From Clostridia bacterium (GTDB taxonomy: Bacteria; Bacillota; Clostridia; Christensenellales; DTU072): 64,000 nt of DNA. Of the stretch, positions 5,219 through 61,977 are shown piece after piece. Numbering within the stretch: position 1 is the first letter of the stretch; the number at the start of each line of letters is the position of its first letter. The notes under the pieces were generated by a model, which was given only the letters and a program-made list of their open reading frames with translations, did no database searches and was not told where the DNA came from. The stretch is taken from positions 198,944-262,943 of the forward strand of contig JAEDHK010000002.1 of the NCBI GenBank assembly GCA_016297005.1, read 5' to 3'. A program made the translations under genes and the position numbers.

Positions 5219-5695
5219 TTAGTTTTTGCTGATGGATCTGATAACAAGAATCATATCGCCTGCCGGCGTCTTAGCCACAACGCGATCGCCCTTCTTGTGC
5301 CCGACGAGAGCCTTGCCGATGGGGCTTCGGTCGCTGATTTTATATTTGCGGCTGTCCGCTTCCAGACTGGAAACAATCTGAAGAGTCATTTCTTCGTCTT
5401 CGGCTTCGTCGTAAACGACAACGCTGTTTCCGATGCCGATATACTTGGTGTTGACTTCTTTTTCGTCGATGATCTCGACAAGAGCAAGGGTGTCTTCGAT
5501 ACGGGCGATTTCGGCTTCGTTGGCCACCTGCGCTTCTTTGGCGGCGGAATATTCGGCGTTTTCGCTCAAATCACCGAACTCTTTGGCGTGCTTGATCGCG
5601 TCGGAGATCTCGCTGCGACGAACCGTACGGAGATAGTCCAATTTCTGATTCATTTCGTCAAATTTTTCTTGCGTCAATTTAATAACGGTTTCCAT
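5219..5695 (-). CDS. greA: transcription elongation factor GreA
   Basis: 158 aa. N-terminal coiled-coil with DLSENAEYSAAKE motif, C-terminal globular domain SPIGKALVGHKKGD. Confidence 0.95.
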   Translation of the reverse strand: METVIKLTQEKFDEMNQKLDYLRTVRRSEISDAIKHAKEFGDLSENAEYSAAKEAQVANEAEIARIEDTLALVEIIDEKEVNTKYIGIGNSVVVYDEAEDEEMTLQIVSSLEADSRKYKISDRSPIGKALVGHKKGDRVVAKTPAGDMILVIRSISKN

Positions 5696-5787
5696 GATAC
5701 AAAAATACTCCTTCTTAAAAAAAGTCGGTTACCTTGTGTCTTGTCAAAGTAACCGGCTTCCGTCTTTTTTACTTTGCTATGCGATGA

Positions 5788-6075
5788 TTATTCACCCTTG
5801 AAAGCGAGCAGACCCATGATCCGTGCGCGTTTTATCGCCACGGCCAGGTCGCGTTGGTGCTTTACGCAAACGCCCGACGTTCTCCGCGGAATGATCTTGC
5901 CGTTTTCGGCAATGTAACGGGGACGACGTTCTCCGTTGCGGTCGAAGCTCTTTTCGTTGTTCTTTTCGATGTCTTTAACAAGCGCGATATAGTCCACTTC
6001 GTCAACTTTGTTGACGCAGAAAGGACACACCTTTTTCTTCGGCGCGCGTCTGTATATGTTTTCTCTCTTTTCCAT
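5788..6075 (-). CDS. rpsR: 30S ribosomal protein S18 (with about 16-aa internal insertion)
   Basis: [11 protein letters not shown] ... [32 protein letters not shown] matches the S18 core. Lies in the rpsF-ssb-rpsR order. Confidence 0.9.
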
Positions 6076-6098
6076 AATAAAAAATTTACCTCCAAAAA

Positions 6099-6518
6099 TC
6101 AGAAGGGCAGATCCTCGTCGCCCTCAACAGGTTTGAGATCGGCGATCTTGCCGCGCTTTCCGGTGGACGCAGCCGGCACGGAGACCGCTTCCGGAAGTTC
6201 GTTCAGGTCGTCGTTCTTGGTGCTCAGAAATTGTACTTCGTCCGCAACGATCTCAACCGAATAGCGTTTTTGTCCGTCGCTCGTCTCATAGTTTTTGTTT
6301 TGAATGGAGCCGCACACGCCGACTCTGCTACCTTTACGCAGGTATTTGCCGCAGTTTTCGGCCATGGCTCTCCAACAGATAACGGAGAAGAAGTCGGTCT
6401 CTTTAGAACCGTACCGACGGCTCACAGCTAACGTGAACTTACAATTAACAAGATCGTTCGAGGTGGTAGCTACTTCGGGGTCCTTGGTCAAGTTACCGAT
6501 CATGAATACTCTGTTCAT
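6099..6518 (-). CDS. ssb: single-stranded DNA-binding protein
   Basis: [17 protein letters not shown]-fold start; acidic C-terminal tip DEDLPF. Confidence 0.95.
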
Positions 6519-6532
6519 TTTTTGTTCCTCCG

Positions 6533-6814
6533 TTAAATTTTAGTGATCATTTGACGAATAATTACGTCGCTGATACGCATTTGTCTTTCGATTTCGGCAG
6601 GGACGTCAGCGCCGGCCGTGAACTTAACGTGCACGTAATAGCCTTCCGTCTTCTTATCGATGGCATAAGCGAACTTTCTGGTGCCCCACTTGTCAGTGGC
6701 ATCAACAGTACCGCCCAAAGAAGCGATCAGCTCGTTGTACTTGTCAACTTGCGCCTGCTTCTCTTCATCGCCGAGTCCGTTATCAATGATGTACAGCAAT
6801 TGATATTTACTCAT
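6533..6814 (-). CDS. rpsF: 30S ribosomal protein S6
   Basis: MSKYQLLYII..WGTRKFAYAI..GYYV typical S6; first gene of the rpsF-ssb-rpsR operon; GGAGG RBS. Confidence 0.95.
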   Translation of the reverse strand: MSKYQLLYIIDNGLGDEEKQAQVDKYNELIASLGGTVDATDKWGTRKFAYAIDKKTEGYYVHVKFTAGADVPAEIERQMRISDVIIRQMITKI

Positions 6815-6841
6815 AGAATAGTACCTCCTTTTGGTCTTATG

Positions 6842-6891
6842 GCTACCGCCTTAGTCGGTAGCAAGGAAAATTTTCTCGACTTCTGCCGAGA
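6842..6891 (-). promoter_or_regulatory. structured rpsF 5' leader (possible S6:S18 autoregulatory hairpins)
   Basis: Minus-strand leader has hairpins TCTCGgcagaagtCGAGA (6891-6874) and GCTACCGactaaggCGGTAGC (6862-6842), just upstream of the RBS and downstream of a TATAAT at 6905-6900. Assignment to the known S6:S18 leader class is by analogy only. Confidence 0.35.
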
Positions 6892-6960
6892 ATGGTTTTA
6901 TTATACAATATTTTTTTAAAAAGTAAAGGATTTTTTACTAATATTTATAGAATTTGCTTA

Positions 6961-7008: not shown

Positions 7009-7965
7009 CTATCGTTCTTCACGGAAATACGACGTCCCGAGCGCCGCCGGAGGTTGCGATTCTTTCTTATTGACGATGCTCGTTATGATCAAAATAATGA
7101 TCGTAACAACAAACGGAATTATTTTTAAGAGTTCCTTATACGTGAAGCTGATATTCAGATAGTTCGGCGCAATATACAACGCACCGAAGAGGATGGATCC
7201 GAGGATCCCCCAGTTCGGTCTCCACAAAGAGAAGATAACGAGCGCTATCGCAAGCCATCCCATGGCGTCGATGGAATATTCCCAACTTCCGTTCAGATAG
7301 TCCATAATATAGAACAAGCCGCCGAGACCGGCAATAGCCGCACCCAAAACGCACGCGCAATACTTATATTTTTCTACGTTGATACCGGCCGCATCCGCCG
7401 TCGCCGGGCTCTCTCCGACCGCACGTAAACTGAGACCGACACGGGTTTTCTTTAAGACAATACTTACCACAAGAGAAAGCGCGATCGCAATGTATACCAA
7501 GCAACCATAGGTCAAAAACAGATCGGAAAACCAATTGTTCATATTTAAACCGTCAGCATACGCCGTAAACGCATTGCTGGCATAAATAAACCCGGTTTTA
7601 TCAACCATTGAAATAAAGAAATTCGTGACGCCCGTACCGAACGTCGTGATAGCAAGACCGCTGACGTTCTGATTACAACGGAGCGTAATGGTCAGAAACC
7701 CATATAATAATCCGCCGAACCCGGCAAAAAGCATGGAAAAAATAATACCTATGATCACAGCGGCGAAACCGTTCACTTGCGTAACGTCGGCAAGAGTCTT
7801 CAAATAAACAGACTCCCCTACGCAACCGCCGAGAGCGCCGAGGCACATGATACCGGGGATACCGAGGTTAAGGTGTCCGCTCTTTTCGGTAATGGTTTCT
7901 CCGGTCGATCCAAATAGAAAAACAGTACTGAATCTTATTGCATTATGTATAAACGTAAGAAACAT
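7009..7965 (-). CDS. ABC transporter permease (BMP/nucleoside uptake family, NupQ/YufQ-like)
   Basis: 318 aa polytopic membrane protein in an operon with BMP-family binding protein, ATPase and second permease. Confidence 0.85.
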   Translation of the reverse strand: MFLTFIHNAIRFSTVFLFGSTGETITEKSGHLNLGIPGIMCLGALGGCVGESVYLKTLADVTQVNGFAAVIIGIIFSMLFAGFGGLLYGFLTITLRCNQNVSGLAITTFGTGVTNFFISMVDKTGFIYASNAFTAYADGLNMNNWFSDLFLTYGCLVYIAIALSLVVSIVLKKTRVGLSLRAVGESPATADAAGINVEKYKYCACVLGAAIAGLGGLFYIMDYLNGSWEYSIDAMGWLAIALVIFSLWRPNWGILGSILFGALYIAPNYLNISFTYKELLKIIPFVVTIIILIITSIVNKKESQPPAALGTSYFREER

Positions 7966-7967
7966 AT

Positions 7968-9086
7968 TTACTTCGCACCTCCCTCTCTGACTGCTTTGAT
8001 CTTGTCTTTCTTCAATTTGATGACTACTTTATAGCGCACGAAGAATTCGCTCGCAATAACCAAAAGGAAGAATATACCGACAATAACGCCGTTGAACGCC
8101 TCGCTGTCGCCGATATTGAACGTACTCGCCGCCTGAGAAGACCCTCTTTGCATAAATACGACCAAAAACGTCACAAAAATCATAATGATGGGGTTGAATT
8201 GAGACAACCATGAAACAAGGATTGCAGTAAAACCTCTGCCTCCGACCAGATCCGCATTCAACGTCGGGGTCGGGCTCCCGCCTACGAGCAAAAAGCCTGC
8301 AATACCGCATATCGCGCCGGAAAGAATCATCGTACGAATGATTACCTTCTTAACGTTGATGCCGACGTACTTTGCCGTATTAACGCTTTCGCCAACCACG
8401 TCCAATTCGTATCCGTGCTTGCTGAAACGCAAATACACGAACACGATAGCCGTCAATACGGTCACTATAACGACGTTAATGATGTATTTTTGTCCCAATA
8501 TAGAAGAAAAACTGCCGTATTTCAAAATACCTATCTTACTCGATCCGTCAGGAGCCCATTGGTTAATGGTAAACAATACAAGATGGGTTGCAATATAGTT
8601 CATCATGAGCGTAAACAAAGTTTCGTTCGTATTCCATTTGGCTTTGAGAAGCGCCGGAATAACGCCCCAAATCGCGCCGAAAACCAAACTTACCAAAAGC
8701 ATAATGATGATCAGCAGGCTTCCTGCGACCTTCCCGCCTAAATACCAGATAACGATAGCGCTGGCAAACGCCCCCATAAGCGTCTGCCCCTCGGCGCCGA
8801 TATTCCAAAACTTCATCTTAAACGCAGGCGTTACGGCGAGAGAAACGCACAACAACATGGCCCAACTCTGCAATAAAGAATATATCCTCGTTCCATGAAA
8901 AGCGCCCTTGATCATTTCACTGTAAAACCCGCCGAAATGTTGTCCTTTTGTCAGTATTAAGCAAACTAAGCCGCTGACCAAAAACGCAATCAGTACGGCT
9001 ACGGCGCGTATAAGCCACATTTTCCATGCCGGCATGTCCGCTCTTTTCATAATATGGATAAACGGCTCTCTTTTCTTCGTATGCAT
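7968..9086 (-). CDS. ABC transporter permease (BMP/nucleoside uptake family, NupP/YufP-like)
   Basis: 372 aa polytopic membrane protein. 1-nt overlap with the upstream ATPase gene, 2-nt gap to the next permease. Confidence 0.85.
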   Translation of the reverse strand: MHTKKREPFIHIMKRADMPAWKMWLIRAVAVLIAFLVSGLVCLILTKGQHFGGFYSEMIKGAFHGTRIYSLLQSWAMLLCVSLAVTPAFKMKFWNIGAEGQTLMGAFASAIVIWYLGGKVAGSLLIIIMLLVSLVFGAIWGVIPALLKAKWNTNETLFTLMMNYIATHLVLFTINQWAPDGSSKIGILKYGSFSSILGQKYIINVVIVTVLTAIVFVYLRFSKHGYELDVVGESVNTAKYVGINVKKVIIRTMILSGAICGIAGFLLVGGSPTPTLNADLVGGRGFTAILVSWLSQFNPIIMIFVTFLVVFMQRGSSQAASTFNIGDSEAFNGVIVGIFFLLVIASEFFVRYKVVIKLKKDKIKAVREGGAK

Positions 9087-56997: not shown

Positions 56998-58854
56998 TCA
57001 GATCAGTTCGCAAACCAGTTCGGCAAGGCGGGTCGGACTTTCGATAGCCATGCCTTCAATAAGCAGCGCCTGGTTAAATAATACCTCAGTCAGCTTTGCT
57101 GCTTTCTCTTTATCTTCGTCGAACGCCTTTTGTAACTTGTCATAAATGGGGTGATTTCCGTTAATTTCGAGCACTTTTTGCGCTTTTACGCCTTCTGCCG
57201 GAGCGTCGGGGAGCTTATTAAGAACTTTTTCCATCTCCATGGAAACTTCGCCCTTTGTCGAGAAACAAACGGGATGCGTCTTCAAGCGGGAAGAAATTTT
57301 GACTTCGGCCACCTTATTGCCCAGTTTCTCTTTCATAAAGTCAGTCAGCTCTTTGTTTTCGATCGCTGCTTCGGCCTCATCCAACCCAAGATCGCTGCTT
57401 GCTACCGAACGGAATTCTTTTTCGTTGAACGTGCCGAGTACTCTGAGCGCAAATTCGTCGATGTCGTCGGTCAGACAGAGGATATCGAACCCACTGTCGA
57501 GCACTTTTTCGCACTGCGGCAACGCCTTGATGCTCTCGATCGTGGCGCCGGTGGCGTAATAAACGTACTTCTGCCCCTCGCCCATCTTGTCGGAGTACTC
57601 CTGCAACGTGACGAGTTTATCCTCTTTGATCGAGTGGAACAGCACCAGGTCTTTCAGCGTATCTTTGTGCGCACCCCAATTATCATAAATGCCGTATTTA
57701 AGTTGCGTTGCAAATCCTTTATAGAACTTTTCGTACTTTTCGCGGTCGTTTATCAGCAAATCGACTAGTTTATCCTTGATTTTTTTCTCAATATTGGAGG
57801 CTATCTTTTTCAGCCTGTAATTTTGTTGTATTGTTTCACGTGAAACATTTAACGTCAGTTCGCTGTCAACCAACCCTTTTACGAACGAAAAATGGTCCGG
57901 AAGCAGATCTTTGCAACAATCGGTAATGAGTACTCCGTCCGTGTACAGCTTTAAACCTTTCTCAAAATTCTTGGTGTAGTAGTTATATTGCGGATGCGAA
58001 GGGATAAAAAGCAGAGCCTTATACGATACCGCGCCCTCGACCGACGTATGAATGACGGCGATGGGGTCTTCCATGTCATAAAATGTATCTTTATAGAAAG
58101 AATTGTACTCTTCCGGCTTAATTTCCGACTTGTTTTTCTTCCAGAGCGGCACCATAGAATTCAGCGTTTCGGCCTCTTTATACTCCGTTTCTTTGGCGTC
58201 GTCGCCTTCTCCTTCCGTTTTATAATGGGTGGTCTCCATCTTGATGGGATAGCGGATATAGTCGGAATATTTTTTGACCAGTTCTCTGATCTCGTATTCT
58301 TCCAGGTACTTTCCGTACTTTTCTTCTTCGGCGTCCGGGCGGATATGCATAATAATGGTCGTACCGTGGCCCTCTCTCTCGGCGGGCGCGATCTCATAAC
58401 CGGCGCTACCGTTGCTCGTCCACTTGTTAGCCTCATCGCTGCCGTACGCCTTACTGATGACTTCTACCTTATCGCTGACCATAAAGGCCGAATAAAATCC
58501 GACGCCGAATTGTCCGATAATATTGATATCTTCTTTTTGTTCGTTATTTTTCTTAAAGTCCTGCGAGCCGCTCTTTGCTATTACGCCAAGGTTGCTGTCC
58601 ATTTCTTCCGCCGTCATGCCGATACCGTTATCGGTTACGGTAAGGGTCCGCGCCTCTTTGTCCGCCTTGATCTCAATGGCAAAGTCCTCTCGGGCAAGGC
58701 CGCTGATACCGTCGGTCAGACTCTTATAATAGAGCTTGTCGATAGCGTCGCTGGCGTTACTCAGTATCTCACGAATGAAGATCTCTTTATGCGTATAAAT
58801 AGAGTTGATCATCATGTCGAGGATCTTTTGCGATTCTGTTTTAAACTTTTTCAT
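56998..58854 (-). CDS. htpG: molecular chaperone HtpG (Hsp90)
   Basis: IFIREILSNASDAIDK GHKL ATPase motif. Full-length Hsp90 architecture. Start ATG 58854 (MKKFKTES) behind GGAGG. Confidence 0.95.
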   Translation of the reverse strand: MKKFKTESQKILDMMINSIYTHKEIFIREILSNASDAIDKLYYKSLTDGISGLAREDFAIEIKADKEARTLTVTDNGIGMTAEEMDSNLGVIAKSGSQDFKKNNEQKEDINIIGQFGVGFYSAFMVSDKVEVISKAYGSDEANKWTSNGSAGYEIAPAEREGHGTTIIMHIRPDAEEEKYGKYLEEYEIRELVKKYSDYIRYPIKMETTHYKTEGEGDDAKETEYKEAETLNSMVPLWKKNKSEIKPEEYNSFYKDTFYDMEDPIAVIHTSVEGAVSYKALLFIPSHPQYNYYTKNFEKGLKLYTDGVLITDCCKDLLPDHFSFVKGLVDSELTLNVSRETIQQNYRLKKIASNIEKKIKDKLVDLLINDREKYEKFYKGFATQLKYGIYDNWGAHKDTLKDLVLFHSIKEDKLVTLQEYSDKMGEGQKYVYYATGATIESIKALPQCEKVLDSGFDILCLTDDIDEFALRVLGTFNEKEFRSVASSDLGLDEAEAAIENKELTDFMKEKLGNKVAEVKISSRLKTHPVCFSTKGEVSMEMEKVLNKLPDAPAEGVKAQKVLEINGNHPIYDKLQKAFDEDKEKAAKLTEVLFNQALLIEGMAIESPTRLAELVCELI

Positions 58855-58885
58855 CTCTATACCTCCAAACATAATTTGTCGATTT

Positions 58886-58912
58886 TTAGCAGTCTTCGTG
58901 CCTGACTGCTAA
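58886..58912 (-). promoter_or_regulatory. CIRCE-like inverted repeat (HrcA operator variant) upstream of htpG
   Basis: TTAGCAGTC-N9-GACTGCTAA versus canonical CIRCE TTAGCACTC-N9-GAGTGCTAA (one symmetric change per arm). Located between the -10 and the RBS. Confidence 0.7.
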
Positions 58913-58914
58913 TA

Positions 58915-58943
58915 ATTATATACCCCTCTCTTCCGTTTGGCAA
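58915..58943 (-). promoter_or_regulatory. sigma-A promoter of htpG
   Basis: Minus strand TTGCCA (58943-58938), 17 nt, TATAAT (58920-58915). Confidence 0.65.
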
Positions 58944-59114
58944 GTACTTTTTTGATATTCATATTTTTTTATGCTTTCCGTCTCTCCCGATTAAGATATA
59001 CGGCTTGAACACAAAAGTACAAGCTGACCTTGGAGTTGAGCGCCGCCCCACCCGGCATAAAGAATTCGCTTGCAAAAACTGATCTCCTTTCCATGAATTA
59101 TCCAACAAACGATG

Positions 59115-59142
59115 TTGACAAATAAATTTTGTTGGGTATAAT
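59115..59142 (+). promoter_or_regulatory. sigma-A promoter of the four-gene cassette
   Basis: TTGACA (59115-59120), 16 nt, TATAAT (59137-59142). Confidence 0.65.
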
Positions 59143-59159
59143 ATAATTGTGGTGAATGC

Positions 59160-59465
59160 ATGAGTATAATGTCTTCTTTGATCGATAAAGAGAATCTACG
59201 CAATCAAAACATGATCGCGGAATACGAAAAAGAGCTGATTCCTCTCCCGAAAGGGAGCATTAAAACAAAAATCGTCGGAAATCGGATATACTATTATCTG
59301 AATTACAGAGACGGTAAAAAAGTGGTCAGTAAATACGTCGGCAAGGACGAAAGTTCTCTCCAAGAAGTCAAAGACGGACTGGAACGGCGCGCTCACGTCG
59401 AAGCCATGCTGAAAAAACTCAAAGAAGAGCAAAAACAAATAAAAAAACTGGGGGCATTGTTGTGA
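59160..59465 (+). CDS. small hypothetical protein (beta-rich YYYL-motif N-half plus Lys/Glu-rich C-terminal helix), cassette gene 1
   Basis: 101 aa. [32 protein letters not shown] then a charged helix. Stop overlaps the next start (GTGA). Confidence 0.6.
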
Positions 59466-59938
59466 TTTTGTATCATGGGAGCAATATGACCGTAGATATG
59501 CCGAGATTGATCGATCAAAATCGCTATCTCGATTTCGGTTGCGGGTTTTATACCACCACAAACAAAAATCAAGCGGATAATTTCGCACAAAAAGTTGTCG
59601 TCCGCAGAGGCGGCGTCCCCACCGTCAACGTGTATGAATTAGACGAAGGCGCTCTCGCCGATCTGAACGTAAAAAGATTTCTCGCGCCGGACGAACAATG
59701 GCTGGACTTCGTTTCCGCCCACAGAAACGGCACGTACGCGGGAGAAGAGTACGACGTGATCATCGGCGCCGTCGCAAACGACGACGTATACCGCACCCTG
59801 CAAATCTACGCCGGCGGACTTTTAACAAAAAAACAAGCCCTCGAGGCATTAAAGATAAAAAAACTGTTTGATCAATACGTATTCGCGTCCGAAAATGCGC
59901 TTTCCGCGCTGAAATTCGTAAAAGCGGAGGAGATATAA
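59462..59938 (+). CDS. DUF3990-like protein with ADP-ribosyltransferase-like H-Y-E motifs, cassette gene 2
   Basis: 158 aa, GTG start. LYHGS (H5), GFYTT (Y30), GEEYDVIIG (E95/E96). Family recall: DUF3990 proteins start with LYHGS. Confidence 0.7.
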
Positions 59939-59939
59939 T

Positions 59940-60176
59940 ATGGATGAAAAATTTAAAGCCATACTCAGCGTCGCCCTTATTCCGCAAGTCGTTGATCTGA
60001 TCGTAAAGAATGATTCTTTGAACGATGCCGACGCGCTGAACGCTTTCTACAAATCCAAAACGTACGAACTGCTCTCAAAAGAAAACACAAAAATATGGCA
60101 TTTCAGCCCCCTTACCGTTTATTCCATTTGGGAAGAAGAACGGAAAACGGGCAAGCTGATCCTGCCGGAGGAATAA
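59940..60176 (+). CDS. small helical protein (DUF3791-like), cassette gene 3
   Basis: 78 aa. GGAGG RBS. 1-nt gap after gene 2. Confidence 0.6.
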   Translation: MDEKFKAILSVALIPQVVDLIVKNDSLNDADALNAFYKSKTYELLSKENTKIWHFSPLTVYSIWEEERKTGKLILPEE

Positions 60177-60179
60177 ATT

Positions 60180-60386
60180 ATGAGTAAAGAACTCCCCTTC
60201 TACGTATTGTGCATAGAAGAATATAAAAATCAAAAAAACTTATCCGGCAGAGAGGTCATGGATCTATTTATGAAGTACTCCGTCCTTGACTACATTAAGT
60301 CTTTTTACGAAGTACTCCATACAACGGGAAGCAAATATATCGTCGACGATATAGACCTGTATATCAAGTCCCGCCAATCGGTATAA
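60180..60386 (+). CDS. DUF3791-like small protein, cassette gene 4
   Basis: 68 aa. FYVLCIEEYKNQKNLSGREVMDLFMKYSVLDYI..LHTTG pattern as remembered for DUF3791. GGAGGAA RBS. Confidence 0.65.
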   Translation: MSKELPFYVLCIEEYKNQKNLSGREVMDLFMKYSVLDYIKSFYEVLHTTGSKYIVDDIDLYIKSRQSV

Positions 60387-60798
60387 AGAATCTCTCTTTA
60401 TTCTTCCGCTAATATAAATTTCGTCGTTTTACATCTGAAATATTTAAAAATTAAAATGAGAAATCAACTTATTATTATATTCTTTATTGGCTTTTGAGAG
60501 GCTTTCCAAAAGGTTGTATTGCTCTTCGGTAAGATCGGCTTTACCCTTGTTTCTCCGCTTTGGTCTGTGTCTTGTCGAGAACTTTTTTCTTCACTATATC
60601 CGTTTGTTTGGGATTCGACGGGATTTTTATTTATCGTCGCTCTTCCGTTGGCTCGGTCGTAAGATCCGTTCCGGAATCGGCAGCGAGGGTCGTCAGTTAC
60701 TTTCTCCGCCAAGGGAAAACTTTTCTTAATTATTCCGATCGGTGCAATCAACGGAAAAAGACAAAGTCACTTTTTCGTTCGTCTTTCCTTAATTTCCT

Positions 60799-61977
60799 TT
60801 ACAAATTATCGGTAAAGCGTTTGATCTTTTTCAAAGCGGCGGTCAGGTCTTTGATACTGTAAGCGTAGGAGATGCGGACGTTGTACTTTCCGCTGTCGCC
60901 GAAAGCTCCGCCGGGGACAACTGCGACTTTTTCTTTGCGGAAGAGTTCGTTGGCAAATTCTTCTCCCGTCATGTTGAATTTTTTGACGGACGGGAAGGCG
61001 TAAAAGGCGCCTTGCGGCTCGAAGCAGTCCATGCCGGCTTTTTTCAGTTCGTTCAGGAGAAACCGACGACGGAAATCGTACTGTTCTTTCATGCGGGCAA
61101 CTGCGGCAAAACCGTCTTCCAATCCCGATTCCAAGCAGGCGATACCGCAGTATTGCGAGGGGGTGGGGGCGCACATGATGACGTACTGGTGTATCTTATA
61201 CATACAGTAGACGATGGGCTCCGGTCCGCAGACGTACCCCAGCCTCCAACCGGTCATGGCGAAGGCTTTGGAAAAACCGTTGATAACAAGCGTCCGCTCT
61301 TTCATTCCCTCGATCGAGGCGATGGATACGTGGCCTTTTTCGGTGTAGGTCAGTTCGCTGTAAATTTCGTCGGACAAGACGAGGATATTTCTTTTTATAC
61401 AGACTTCGGCGATCTTTTTAAGGTCCTCCTCTTCCAAGATAGCGCCCGTCGGGTTATTGGGGTAAGGAAGTACGAGGACTTTGGTTTTTTCGTTGCACAG
61501 TTTATCGATGTCTTCAGCCTGCACGCGGAAGTTGTTTTCTTCGTAGCAAGGCACGGGTACGGGCTTGCCCCCGGCAAGCAGTACGCAGGGAGAATAAGAG
61601 ACGTACGAGGGCGAAGGGATCAAAACTTCGTCCCCTTTTTCAAGCGTCGTGCGCAAGGTCAGGTCGATGCCTTCGCTCCCGCCGACGGTAACCATGACTT
61701 CTTTTTCCGGCGAATATGGTATACCGTATCTGGAAGAATAGTATTCGGAAATCAGTTTTCGGAGTTTGATCATTCCTTTATTCGCCGAATACTGTGTCAC
61801 GCCTTTTCCGATCATGCGCACGGCGAGATCGCGCCCCTCTTGCGGGGTATCGAAATCGGGCTCACCCACGCCGAGAGAAATTGCGTCGGGGGATTCGGCG
61901 ACGATATCAAAAAACTTTCTGATACCGGACGGTTGCAGTTCGGAAACGGTCTTTCCGATAAAACGGCTATAATCCAT
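60799..61977 (-). CDS. pyridoxal phosphate-dependent aminotransferase (class I/II, aspartate aminotransferase-like)
   Basis: 392 aa. NPTG, SDEIY, and SKAFAMTGWRLGY with the PLP lysine. Confidence 0.9.
   Translation of the reverse strand: MDYSRFIGKTVSELQPSGIRKFFDIVAESPDAISLGVGEPDFDTPQEGRDLAVRMIGKGVTQYSANKGMIKLRKLISEYYSSRYGIPYSPEKEVMVTVGGSEGIDLTLRTTLEKGDEVLIPSPSYVSYSPCVLLAGGKPVPVPCYEENNFRVQAEDIDKLCNEKTKVLVLPYPNNPTGAILEEEDLKKIAEVCIKRNILVLSDEIYSELTYTEKGHVSIASIEGMKERTLVINGFSKAFAMTGWRLGYVCGPEPIVYCMYKIHQYVIMCAPTPSQYCGIACLESGLEDGFAAVARMKEQYDFRRRFLLNELKKAGMDCFEPQGAFYAFPSVKKFNMTGEEFANELFRKEKVAVVPGGAFGDSGKYNVRISYAYSIKDLTAALKKIKRFTDNL

Follow-up and report, generated by a model that had tools for sequence, protein, structure and literature searches.

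Four short genes on the forward strand of the 64,000-nucleotide (nt) stretch of a Clostridia bacterium contig analyzed here (JAEDHK010000002.1; hereafter, the window) form a cassette that, judged by its matches in other genomes, appears to be a horizontally acquired, autonomous operon. The second gene encodes a DUF3990 protein with a predicted ADP-ribosyltransferase (ART) fold, and by profile matching, genes 2 to 4 are assigned to PDC-M13, a module listed among the phage defense candidates (PDCs), which is present here in a four-gene variant. With moderate confidence, we interpret the cassette as a toxin-antitoxin (TA)–like or abortive-infection module with an ART-fold effector. The three-gene core as PDC-M13, its Pfam domains, and its candidacy for a defense or TA function are already known. 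New here are the variant that contains gene 1, a conserved operator-like repeat at the promoter, and evidence from fused genes that links genes 3 and 4. The boundaries of the mobile unit together with an empty site, and the apparent His-Tyr-Gln (H-Y-Q) catalytic composition of the gene 2 product, are also new.

The PDC-M13 core and its ART-like protein

Genes 2 to 4 were each recognized by PADLOC models of PDC-M13. Gene 2 matched PDC-M13A (PDLC04436) with an E value of 2.7e-66, residues 1-157 aligning to positions 1-158 of the 159-position model; gene 3 matched two PDC-M13B models (PDLC04440, E 1.1e-25, and PDLC04439, E 1.5e-25); and gene 4 matched PDC-M13C (PDLC04445, E 4.3e-33). The PDC set comprises 145 untested single- or multigene cassettes predicted through “guilt-by-embedding” in BREX, DISARM, or type I restriction-modification (R-M) loci, and PDC-M13 is catalogued there in two cassette orders, one of which, CAS_00120, reads FAM_00403>>FAM_00080>>FAM_00109 (bioRxiv 10.1101/2024.01.29.577857). 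The order of genes 2, 3, and 4 on one strand is that of CAS_00120, with the family numbers mapped through shared matches to PDC-M10 and PDC-M42: since FAM_00403 heads both of these cassettes and gene 2 matches their models too, FAM_00403 should be DUF3990. In PDC-M10 and PDC-M42, DUF3990 has other partner families. A survey of rumen genomes listed 3324 PDC-M13 hits (PMC13356809). Millman et al. 2022 had been considered as the source of the PDC-M names and was set aside: DUF3990 is absent from its main text (a DUF3791 family is listed in its supplement), and the names come from the guilt-by-embedding preprint. Searches of NCBIfam returned no match for the four proteins, PHROGs gave weak matches only, and sequence and profile searches of the PDB with all four proteins yielded nothing significant.

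These matches bear on an earlier interpretation of the stretch made from its letters alone (the sequence-only reading), which had proposed a candidate toxin-antitoxin or defense module of four uncharacterized proteins. The proposal is upheld by the PDC-M13A, PDC-M13B, and PDC-M13C matches and, as described below, by an R-M–embedded homologue, by the unrelated contexts of the cassette, and by the ART fold. DUF3990, DUF3791, and PDC-M13 had, however, already entered the catalogues as untested entries.

All four genes lie on the forward strand: gene 1 at 59160-59465 [101 amino acids (aa), ATG start], gene 2 at 59462-59938 (158 aa, GTG start, DUF3990), gene 3 at 59940-60176 (78 aa, no Pfam family), and gene 4 at 60180-60386 (68 aa, DUF3791). 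The stop of gene 1 and the start of gene 2 share the letters GTGA at 59462-59465, a 4-nt overlap read directly from the sequence; genes 2 and 3 are separated by 1 nt (59939), and genes 3 and 4 by 3 nt (60177-60179). The coordinates and the tight coupling given in the sequence-only reading were thus reproduced, as were the strong GGAGG ribosome-binding sites before the last two genes; gene 2 is preceded by GGGGG and gene 1 by just GGTG. The order, sizes, and overlaps of the four genes were repeated in every related locus examined, and this conservation, together with the spacing, suggests that the genes are co-transcribed. The G+C content of the cassette is 43.4%, compared to 48.5% for the window. 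No Rfam match was obtained in the region 58700-61000, and an exact-sequence look-up returned no record for gene 2 or for the neighboring htpG gene.

Gene 2 is a full-length member of PF13151 (DUF3990), with an E value of 7.4e-51 and a score of 172.3 bits against a cut-off of 32.2 bits. Since residues 1-152 align to positions 1-152 of the 152-position model and an invariant LYHGS motif precedes the alternative ATG, the GTG start is taken to be correct; the downstream ATG, which is chosen by some gene callers, yields a 150-aa product without LYHGS. DUF3990 has been placed in the Pfam ART clan (PMC7955679), and the N terminus of gene 2 gave an additional weak match to ART-PolyVal (E 0.011). The AlphaFold model, built from 44 homologues, reached a predicted local distance difference test (pLDDT) score of 87.2 and a predicted template modeling (pTM) score of 0.81. 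When it was compared with the PDB using Foldseek, nearly all neighbors were ARTs: the best was a cyanophage pre-ejectosome protein (9k3a_B; E 5.4e-4, probability 1.00), followed by cholix toxin (probability 0.96), PARP1, ParT bound to its antitoxin, and exotoxin A, with Arr-2 (probability 0.47) and KptA (probability 0.18) at lower ranks. The model and the clan membership together support the prediction of an ART fold.

The sequence-only reading had ascribed ART-like catalytic motifs to gene 2. An alignment with homologues of 30-40% identity from C. tetani, Bacteroides, Moraxella plasmids, and Geobacillus phage E3 revealed invariant residues that include L3-Y-H5-G-S, D24-F-G-x-G-F-Y30, W80, R88, Q138, and E144. 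In the model, H5 of LYHGS lies on strand 2-7 and Y30 of GFYTT on strand 27-32, so the His and Tyr positions that bind NAD+ in this ART class are present. Invariant Gln138 precedes the C-terminal strand Y-V-F, and invariant Glu144 follows six residues later, after the strand. When the PARP1 motifs LWHGS, GIYFA, and NEYIVY are set beside LYHGS, GFYTT, and [D/N]-Q138-Y-V-F of gene 2, we take the latter to be the H, Y, and E motifs, respectively. The invariant H5 and Y30 agree with the claim of catalytic motifs; at the third position, on this tentative mapping, Gln138 appears to take the place of the expected Glu.

DUF3990 also occurs as a variable C-terminal domain of Rhs effectors from type VI secretion systems (T6SS), and its function was not determined there (PMC4524185, PMC10763514, PMC12165300). 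In a Cupriavidus Rhs protein of 1591 aa, the C terminus past the DPxGL-type motifs aligns with residues 3-111 of gene 2 (32% identity, E 2e-12). The next gene encodes a 134-aa protein, presumably the immunity factor, that shows no relation to genes 3 and 4, and the idea that DUF3791 is a general immunity family was dropped for this reason. In all, two paralogous proteins of ~130 aa are encoded after this Rhs gene (Cupriavidus campinensis, locus L117), at 5364-5768 and 5954-6337; they belong to no Pfam family, are unrelated to DUF3791, and are candidate immunity proteins for the toxin domain.

A Subdoligranulum variabile plasmid (OY725881.1; locus L116, 3992-5243) carries a DUF3990 gene with at least two frameshifts and a stop, in which HGS is changed to HDN, next to intact open reading frames (ORFs) resembling genes 1, 3, and 4. 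This pattern fits the decay of a toxin gene as one possibility.

Genes 3, 4, and 1 and the promoter repeat

Gene 4 is a member of PF12668 (DUF3791; E 1.4e-22, 79.9 bits against a cut-off of 25 bits). Gene 3 has no Pfam match and is not a DUF3791 member. Comparison of the gene 3 and gene 4 families by hhalign detected no relation (probability 0.4), and the notion that the two genes are paralogues was abandoned. A link of a different kind came from Bacteroides uniformis and Phocaeicola plasmids, where a “DUF3791” protein of 147-149 aa is encoded ahead of, and overlapping, the DUF3990 gene (L020, 3061-3983; L113, 3555-4480). Residues 9-82 of the 147-aa Bacteroides protein align with gene 3 (E 2e-10) and residues 83-147 with gene 4 (E 2e-15). 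A collinear fusion of this kind speaks for physical cooperation between the products of genes 3 and 4. On C. tetani plasmids, the order is permuted (gene 4–like, DUF3990, gene 3–like); in Moraxella, where DUF3990 is followed by an 83-aa protein and DUF3791, it is the same as in the window cassette.

Gene 1 gave no Pfam match above cut-off and no PADLOC match. Its relatives scored 14.5-19.3 bits against PF20586 (DUF6788), for which the cut-off is 27.2 bits, and gene 1 of the window was itself unmatched; precomputed tables based on a newer version of the model assign PF20586 to all close gene 1 homologues. The family is large, with 1349 representative clusters matched at E <= 1e-3, 323 of which still match at E <= 1e-10, nearly all of them stand-alone proteins of ~100 aa that share the motif E..RN...Y..EL..LPKGS...K......YYYL.YR.G.KV..Y.G. 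The AlphaFold model (pLDDT 94.7) consists of a helix at residues 3-26, three strands within residues 33-61, and a long helix at residues 64-100. Foldseek comparison of this model with the PDB and BFVD gave no match at E <= 0.001; weak leads were prefoldin β subunits (E 0.04) and integrase arm-type domains (probability 0.35-0.6). Gene 1 is missing from all three-gene versions of the module. Since such versions exist (54-60% identity), gene 1 is dispensable and accessory, a clade-specific addition to the three-gene core.

Outside the cassettes, the N-terminal ~100 aa of an NTP_transf_8 (“GSU2403 family”) protein on a Roseibium plasmid (L114, 525-1547) are marginally similar to gene 1 (E 7e-3). 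This protein has a nucleotidyltransferase fold, and the likeness is centered on the β-sheet motif of gene 1, LPKGS...YYYL.YR.G.KV..Y.G. Hypothetical proteins of archaeal plasmids, including one on a Haloarcula plasmid (L115, 2818-3183), match the gene 1 motif more strongly (best E 1e-5). The motif may thus represent a widespread small domain.

Upstream of gene 1, the −35 hexamer TTGACA (59115-59120) and the −10 hexamer TATAAT (59137-59142), both on the forward strand and 16 nt apart, form a 12/12 consensus promoter. As the sequence-only reading had stated, this promoter stands ahead of the cassette, and it is the sole 12/12 match within 58700-61000, a region in which 11 promoter-like sites were observed against 3.8 +/- 2.1 in shuffled sequences. 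The −35 hexamer is kept in homologous cassettes, and the −10 hexamer is invariant in the cassette alignment.

A repeat search revealed an inverted repeat that brackets the −35 hexamer, with 11-nt arms that are 91% complementary and 18 nt apart. The left arm, TATCCAACAAA (59099-59109, forward strand), lies upstream of the −35 hexamer and is a candidate operator half-site; the right arm, TTTGTTGGGTA (59128-59138, forward strand), overlaps the upstream edge of the −10 hexamer. The repeat keeps its position in seven contexts. The CCAAC of the left arm is invariant in the cassette alignment, and changes in the arms are correlated: TTAACCAAC pairs with GTTGGTTAA in L103 (9/9), and ACAACA with TGTTGT in L116. 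The expected transcription start lies downstream of the repeat, which therefore most probably functions at the level of DNA; the gene 1 protein may be what binds it.

Mobility of the cassette and its insertion site

Cassettes elsewhere are 65-69% similar to the window at the DNA level, and the similarity spans only positions 59096/59098 to 60370/60390. These limits define a conserved mobile unit, on the forward strand at 59096-60390, that comprises the promoter, the operator-like repeat, and the four genes and extends from ~20 base pairs (bp) upstream of the −35 hexamer through the stop of gene 4. Two loci, L111 and L108, have a common upstream sequence and the cassette and diverge straight after gene 4. 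Look-ups of gene 1 homologues (52-100% identity) located the gene in 27 further places, and every contig that was sufficiently long contained the same four genes. A strain copy with 97% identity retains all four.

The four-gene unit is present in at least six other unrelated contexts. Its settings include, besides the same htpG/aminotransferase site in near-identical strains, a polysaccharide-synthesis cluster; an element with portal, IstB/DnaA-like, serine recombinase, and integrase genes; a site adjoining a portal fragment; a variable region with RhuM and helix-turn-helix (HTH) genes; and a region with AAA_14 and Band_7 genes. Among the viral contigs of IMG/VR, three carry all four genes and two others carry genes 2-4 only (54-60% identity). 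The gene 1–like genes on viral contigs L121-L123 were detected by tblastn; a pattern search with the close gene 1 alignment found none. The recombinase- and portal-bearing element, the viral contigs, and the unrelated loci show that the unit occurs independently of htpG, a point on which the sequence-only reading had proposed a comparison of gene neighborhoods.

The portal genes offer a hint at how one copy moved. In L018, a 75-aa phage-portal fragment (6696-6923) lies immediately upstream of the cassette, and a full 409-aa portal gene (L011, 5702-6931) occupies the equivalent position in the recombinase-bearing element (L011-L016), which suggests that the cassette moved along with a piece of that element. 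On the IMG/VR contig L119, a WYL/WCX-domain regulator (7518-8489) is encoded ~570 bp downstream of a three-gene version without gene 1, and a serine-recombinase–like gene is located upstream.

For DUF3990 as a whole, 3297 homologues were found. They occur on 90 plasmids, mostly adjoining DUF3791, and the carriers include a mobilizable Phocaeicola plasmid of 7.6 kilobases (kb), a size that suggests an addiction-type role. On larger Bacteroides plasmids, DUF3990 is accompanied by Fic, RhuM, and ORF6N genes. The R-M–embedded homologue is found on Moraxella osloensis plasmid NZ_CP014236.1 (L112, 3454-7001), where hsdM, DUF3990, the gene for the 83-aa protein, DUF3791, and hsdS follow one another as overlapping genes. 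A transposase gene is located between hsdS and hsdR on this plasmid.

To look for an empty site, 80 htpG loci from species-representative genomes were compared with the window. The closest was that of an uncultured Clostridia metagenome-assembled genome (L023), whose HtpG and aminotransferase are 91 and 89% identical, respectively, at the aa level. In L023, asnC, the aminotransferase gene, and htpG are contiguous, and there is no match to genes 1-4. The homology detected by blastn stops at 58955 and resumes at 60809, which defines a lineage-specific block at 58956-60808 of 1853 bp, compared to ~174 bp in L023. The cassette is thus not fixed in all relatives but is subject to presence/absence variation, and fixation at this position, which the sequence-only reading had named as a refutation, does not hold.

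On either side of the block lie genes on the reverse strand: htpG at 56998-58872 (Pfam HSP90, E 5e-104) and a class I/II aminotransferase gene at 60799-61977 (PF00155), which is followed by an AsnC-type regulator gene. Both neighbors are unrelated housekeeping genes on the opposite strand, as had been noted from the sequence alone. An AT-rich spacer (60391-60808, 38% G+C) separates the cassette from the 3′ end of the aminotransferase gene; it belongs to the lineage-specific block but lies outside the conserved mobile unit. Neither flank (58956-59095 and 60391-60808) has a Pfam match or similarity to the fetched loci or to the rest of the window. The sequence-only reading had described the downstream segment as gene debris, which the searches do not bear out: positions 60387-60798 show no Pfam or Rfam match and no DNA or translated similarity to any sequence retrieved, and they are absent from the nearest relative. 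No convincing intrinsic terminator was found 3′ of gene 4.

At the window cassette, a search for insertion marks found no transposase, integrase, target-site duplication, or terminal repeat, and short repeats were at chance level only. One of these is an 18-nt direct repeat, CCACCCGGCATAAAGAAT/CCAATCGGTATAAAGAAT (83% identity), at 59048-59065 and 60374-60391. The first copy precedes the conserved unit by ~30 bp, and the second spans the gene 4 stop. Chance is the probable explanation, but the repeat could be an insertion scar.

The insertion boundary at 58955 lies just outside the control region of htpG, beyond a promoter-like site on the reverse strand (TTGCCA-17-TATAAT, 11/12, 58943-58915). 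Between this site and the htpG start, at 58886-58912, is the sequence TTAGCAGTC-N9-GACTGCTAA. The CIRCE/HrcA operator has the consensus TTAGCACTC-N9-GAGTGCTAA, and we take the site before htpG to resemble it, with one compensatory change per arm. The CIRCE-like site is also conserved before htpG in L023.

Proposed function, rival explanations, and related systems

In the TA-like or abortive-infection scheme, the gene 2 product would be an NAD+-binding ART-fold effector that, in its free state, damages the cell or an invading element. The products of genes 3 and 4, two small helical proteins acting as one unit, would, like an antitoxin or a sensor, keep the effector inactive or tie it to a trigger. 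Gene 1 would encode a small coiled-coil/β-sheet protein that binds the inverted repeat around the −35 hexamer and autoregulates the operon, an optional function like that of the omega repressor. Should the partners be lost, upon infection or when the element is lost, the effector would be set free, with abortive infection or post-segregational killing as the outcome. We infer the toxicity, the enzymatic activity, the target, and the neutralizing partner that the scheme calls for, as well as DNA binding by gene 1 and an anti-phage effect, and we hold each individual role assignment with less confidence than the scheme in general.

Several observations weigh against this interpretation. The TM-scores of the Foldseek matches of gene 2 are modest (0.41-0.49), and the catalytic Glu of the canonical H-Y-E triad appears to be replaced by Gln138, in a tentative mapping based on PARP1 motifs. 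Since the putative immunity factor encoded after the Rhs-linked DUF3990 domain is of an unrelated kind, DUF3791 is not a universal neutralizer. The gene 1 model has no significant structural neighbor, which makes DNA binding by this protein a guess, as is the DNA/RNA-binding or antitoxin-type role given to it in the sequence-only reading. The broken DUF3990 gene on the Subdoligranulum plasmid is a single example and could be an assembly error. The window locus is located outside any defense island, among housekeeping genes. Finally, a functional test of any PDC-M13 or DUF3990 member was not found in the searchable literature.

The roles of the small proteins could also be exchanged, with gene 1 encoding the true antitoxin or a chaperone-like neutralizer and genes 3 and 4 encoding regulators or sensors, for example, DNA binders of a helix-turn-helix–like kind. 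Such an exchange would agree with the 4-nt overlap of genes 1 and 2, which is a classic antitoxin-toxin arrangement, with the best (nonsignificant) fold matches of gene 1 to prefoldin β subunits, which are chaperone-like coiled coils, and with the existence of gene 1–like proteins as a large stand-alone family. We nevertheless regard it as unlikely: three-gene versions that lack gene 1 occur commonly and across phyla, so the neutralizer of the effector must, in those loci, be among the gene 3 and gene 4 proteins, and in Bacteroides it is the fused gene 3-4 protein that takes the upstream, overlapping “antitoxin” position. Distinctly unlikely, in our judgment, is a counter-defense or establishment factor, in which the ART-fold protein would modify host defense or housekeeping targets on behalf of its carrier, be it a phage, a plasmid, or an island, after the model of the ARTs found in polyvalent or ejected phage proteins, and the host would not be protected. 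The cyanophage pre-ejectosome protein 9k3a_B as the top structural match, the weak ART-PolyVal match, and the homologues carried by phage and viral contigs and by many plasmids are in line with this idea, but the module is co-directional inside a type I R-M operon, the very criterion that defines PDC-M13; the window copy stands alone on the chromosome, as an operon that has a strong promoter of its own and no adjoining element genes; and an anti-defense enzyme would have no need of two obligate small partners.

Some ART-fold enzymes that are not toxins have the catalytic Glu replaced, as is seemingly the case in gene 2. Gene 2 might accordingly encode a nontoxic enzyme, either an Arr-like ART acting on small molecules or antibiotics or an RNA 2′-phosphotransferase like Tpt1/KptA, with the small proteins as accessories; Arr-2 and KptA do figure among the low Foldseek ranks. 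Against this, Rhs proteins carry DUF3990 as a toxin module at their C terminus (PMC4524185), and R-M operons, Fic and RhuM neighbors, prophage-like elements, and small plasmids point to conflict systems rather than to metabolism or resistance, which makes a nontoxic enzyme very improbable. We give least credence to a selfish passenger or decaying relic that has no current function in this genome. The isolated insertion amid housekeeping genes, the anonymous AT-rich flanks, and the relative with a broken DUF3990 gene would suit a relic, but none of the four ORFs is broken, the promoter matches the consensus perfectly, the catalytic-type motifs do not vary, and the copy in the 97%-identical strain is complete as well.

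The TA-like or abortive-infection interpretation can be extended to a functional four-component anti-phage or abortive-infection system. Its center would be an H-Y-Q ART-fold enzyme with a new substrate or chemistry, genes 3 and 4 would supply its partner, and gene 1, together with DUF6788-like proteins, would represent a new class of operator-binding regulators. We consider this extended version possible but rather doubtful.

Among the systems with which the cassette can be compared, PDC-M13 is matched by genes 2-4 along the full length of its A, B, and C models and in the order of CAS_00120. It is a three-gene, untested prediction, to which the window locus adds gene 1 and a conserved promoter with an inverted repeat, and the window copy lies outside R-M, BREX, and DISARM loci. 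DarT-DarG resembles the cassette in its small ART-fold effector, its compact mobile operon, and the proposed abortive-infection logic. It differs in that DarT is a DUF4433 protein with a catalytic Glu and DarG is a macrodomain hydrolase; neither DUF4433 nor a macrodomain was matched by Pfam in genes 1-4, which places the cassette outside DarTG, and the cassette has no enzymatic antitoxin detectable by Pfam and a Gln at the expected Glu of gene 2. ParT, of ~160 aa, is close to gene 2 in size, is one of its structural neighbors (6d0i/6d0h, TM 0.42-0.46), and, as is proposed for gene 2, is neutralized by a small protein partner. However, ParT is only 7-8% identical to gene 2, and ParS is of the Xre/COG5642 type, whereas the cassette has two unrelated small partners and gene 1; with no HTH_3/Xre or RES match by Pfam in genes 1-4, the cassette does not belong to ParST or RES-Xre.

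Two further analogies concern layout and position. In omega-epsilon-zeta systems, genes for a small upstream regulator, a neutralizer, and a toxin form one autoregulated operon. This arrangement is an analogy for gene 1 in layout only, as the proteins come from unrelated families, zeta being a kinase and omega belonging to the ribbon-helix-helix type, and gene 1 is a putative DNA binder. PrrC is an anticodon nuclease that sits within a type I R-M operon. The homologous three-gene unit of Moraxella lies likewise between hsdM and hsdS, but PrrC is a different enzyme, and the window cassette has no R-M neighbors. Rhs/T6SS toxins such as Serratia Rhs5 and Enterobacter RhsA (PMC4524185, PMC10763514) share DUF3990 as their toxic tip. 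They are delivered between cells and have an unrelated putative immunity protein downstream, whereas gene 2 would be a stand-alone, cytoplasmic protein with DUF3791-type partners.

Modules of DUF3990 and DUF3791 are very common in gut and rumen anaerobes, and the locus described here is a clean 1.3-kb unit for experiments, with known limits and a consensus promoter of its own. It offers a natural empty site, a link between genes 3 and 4 based on their fusion, a candidate operator, and an unusual catalytic-site composition as leads. If active, the cassette would constitute a new ART-based immunity or addiction system and would provide the first function for three or four “domain of unknown function” families.

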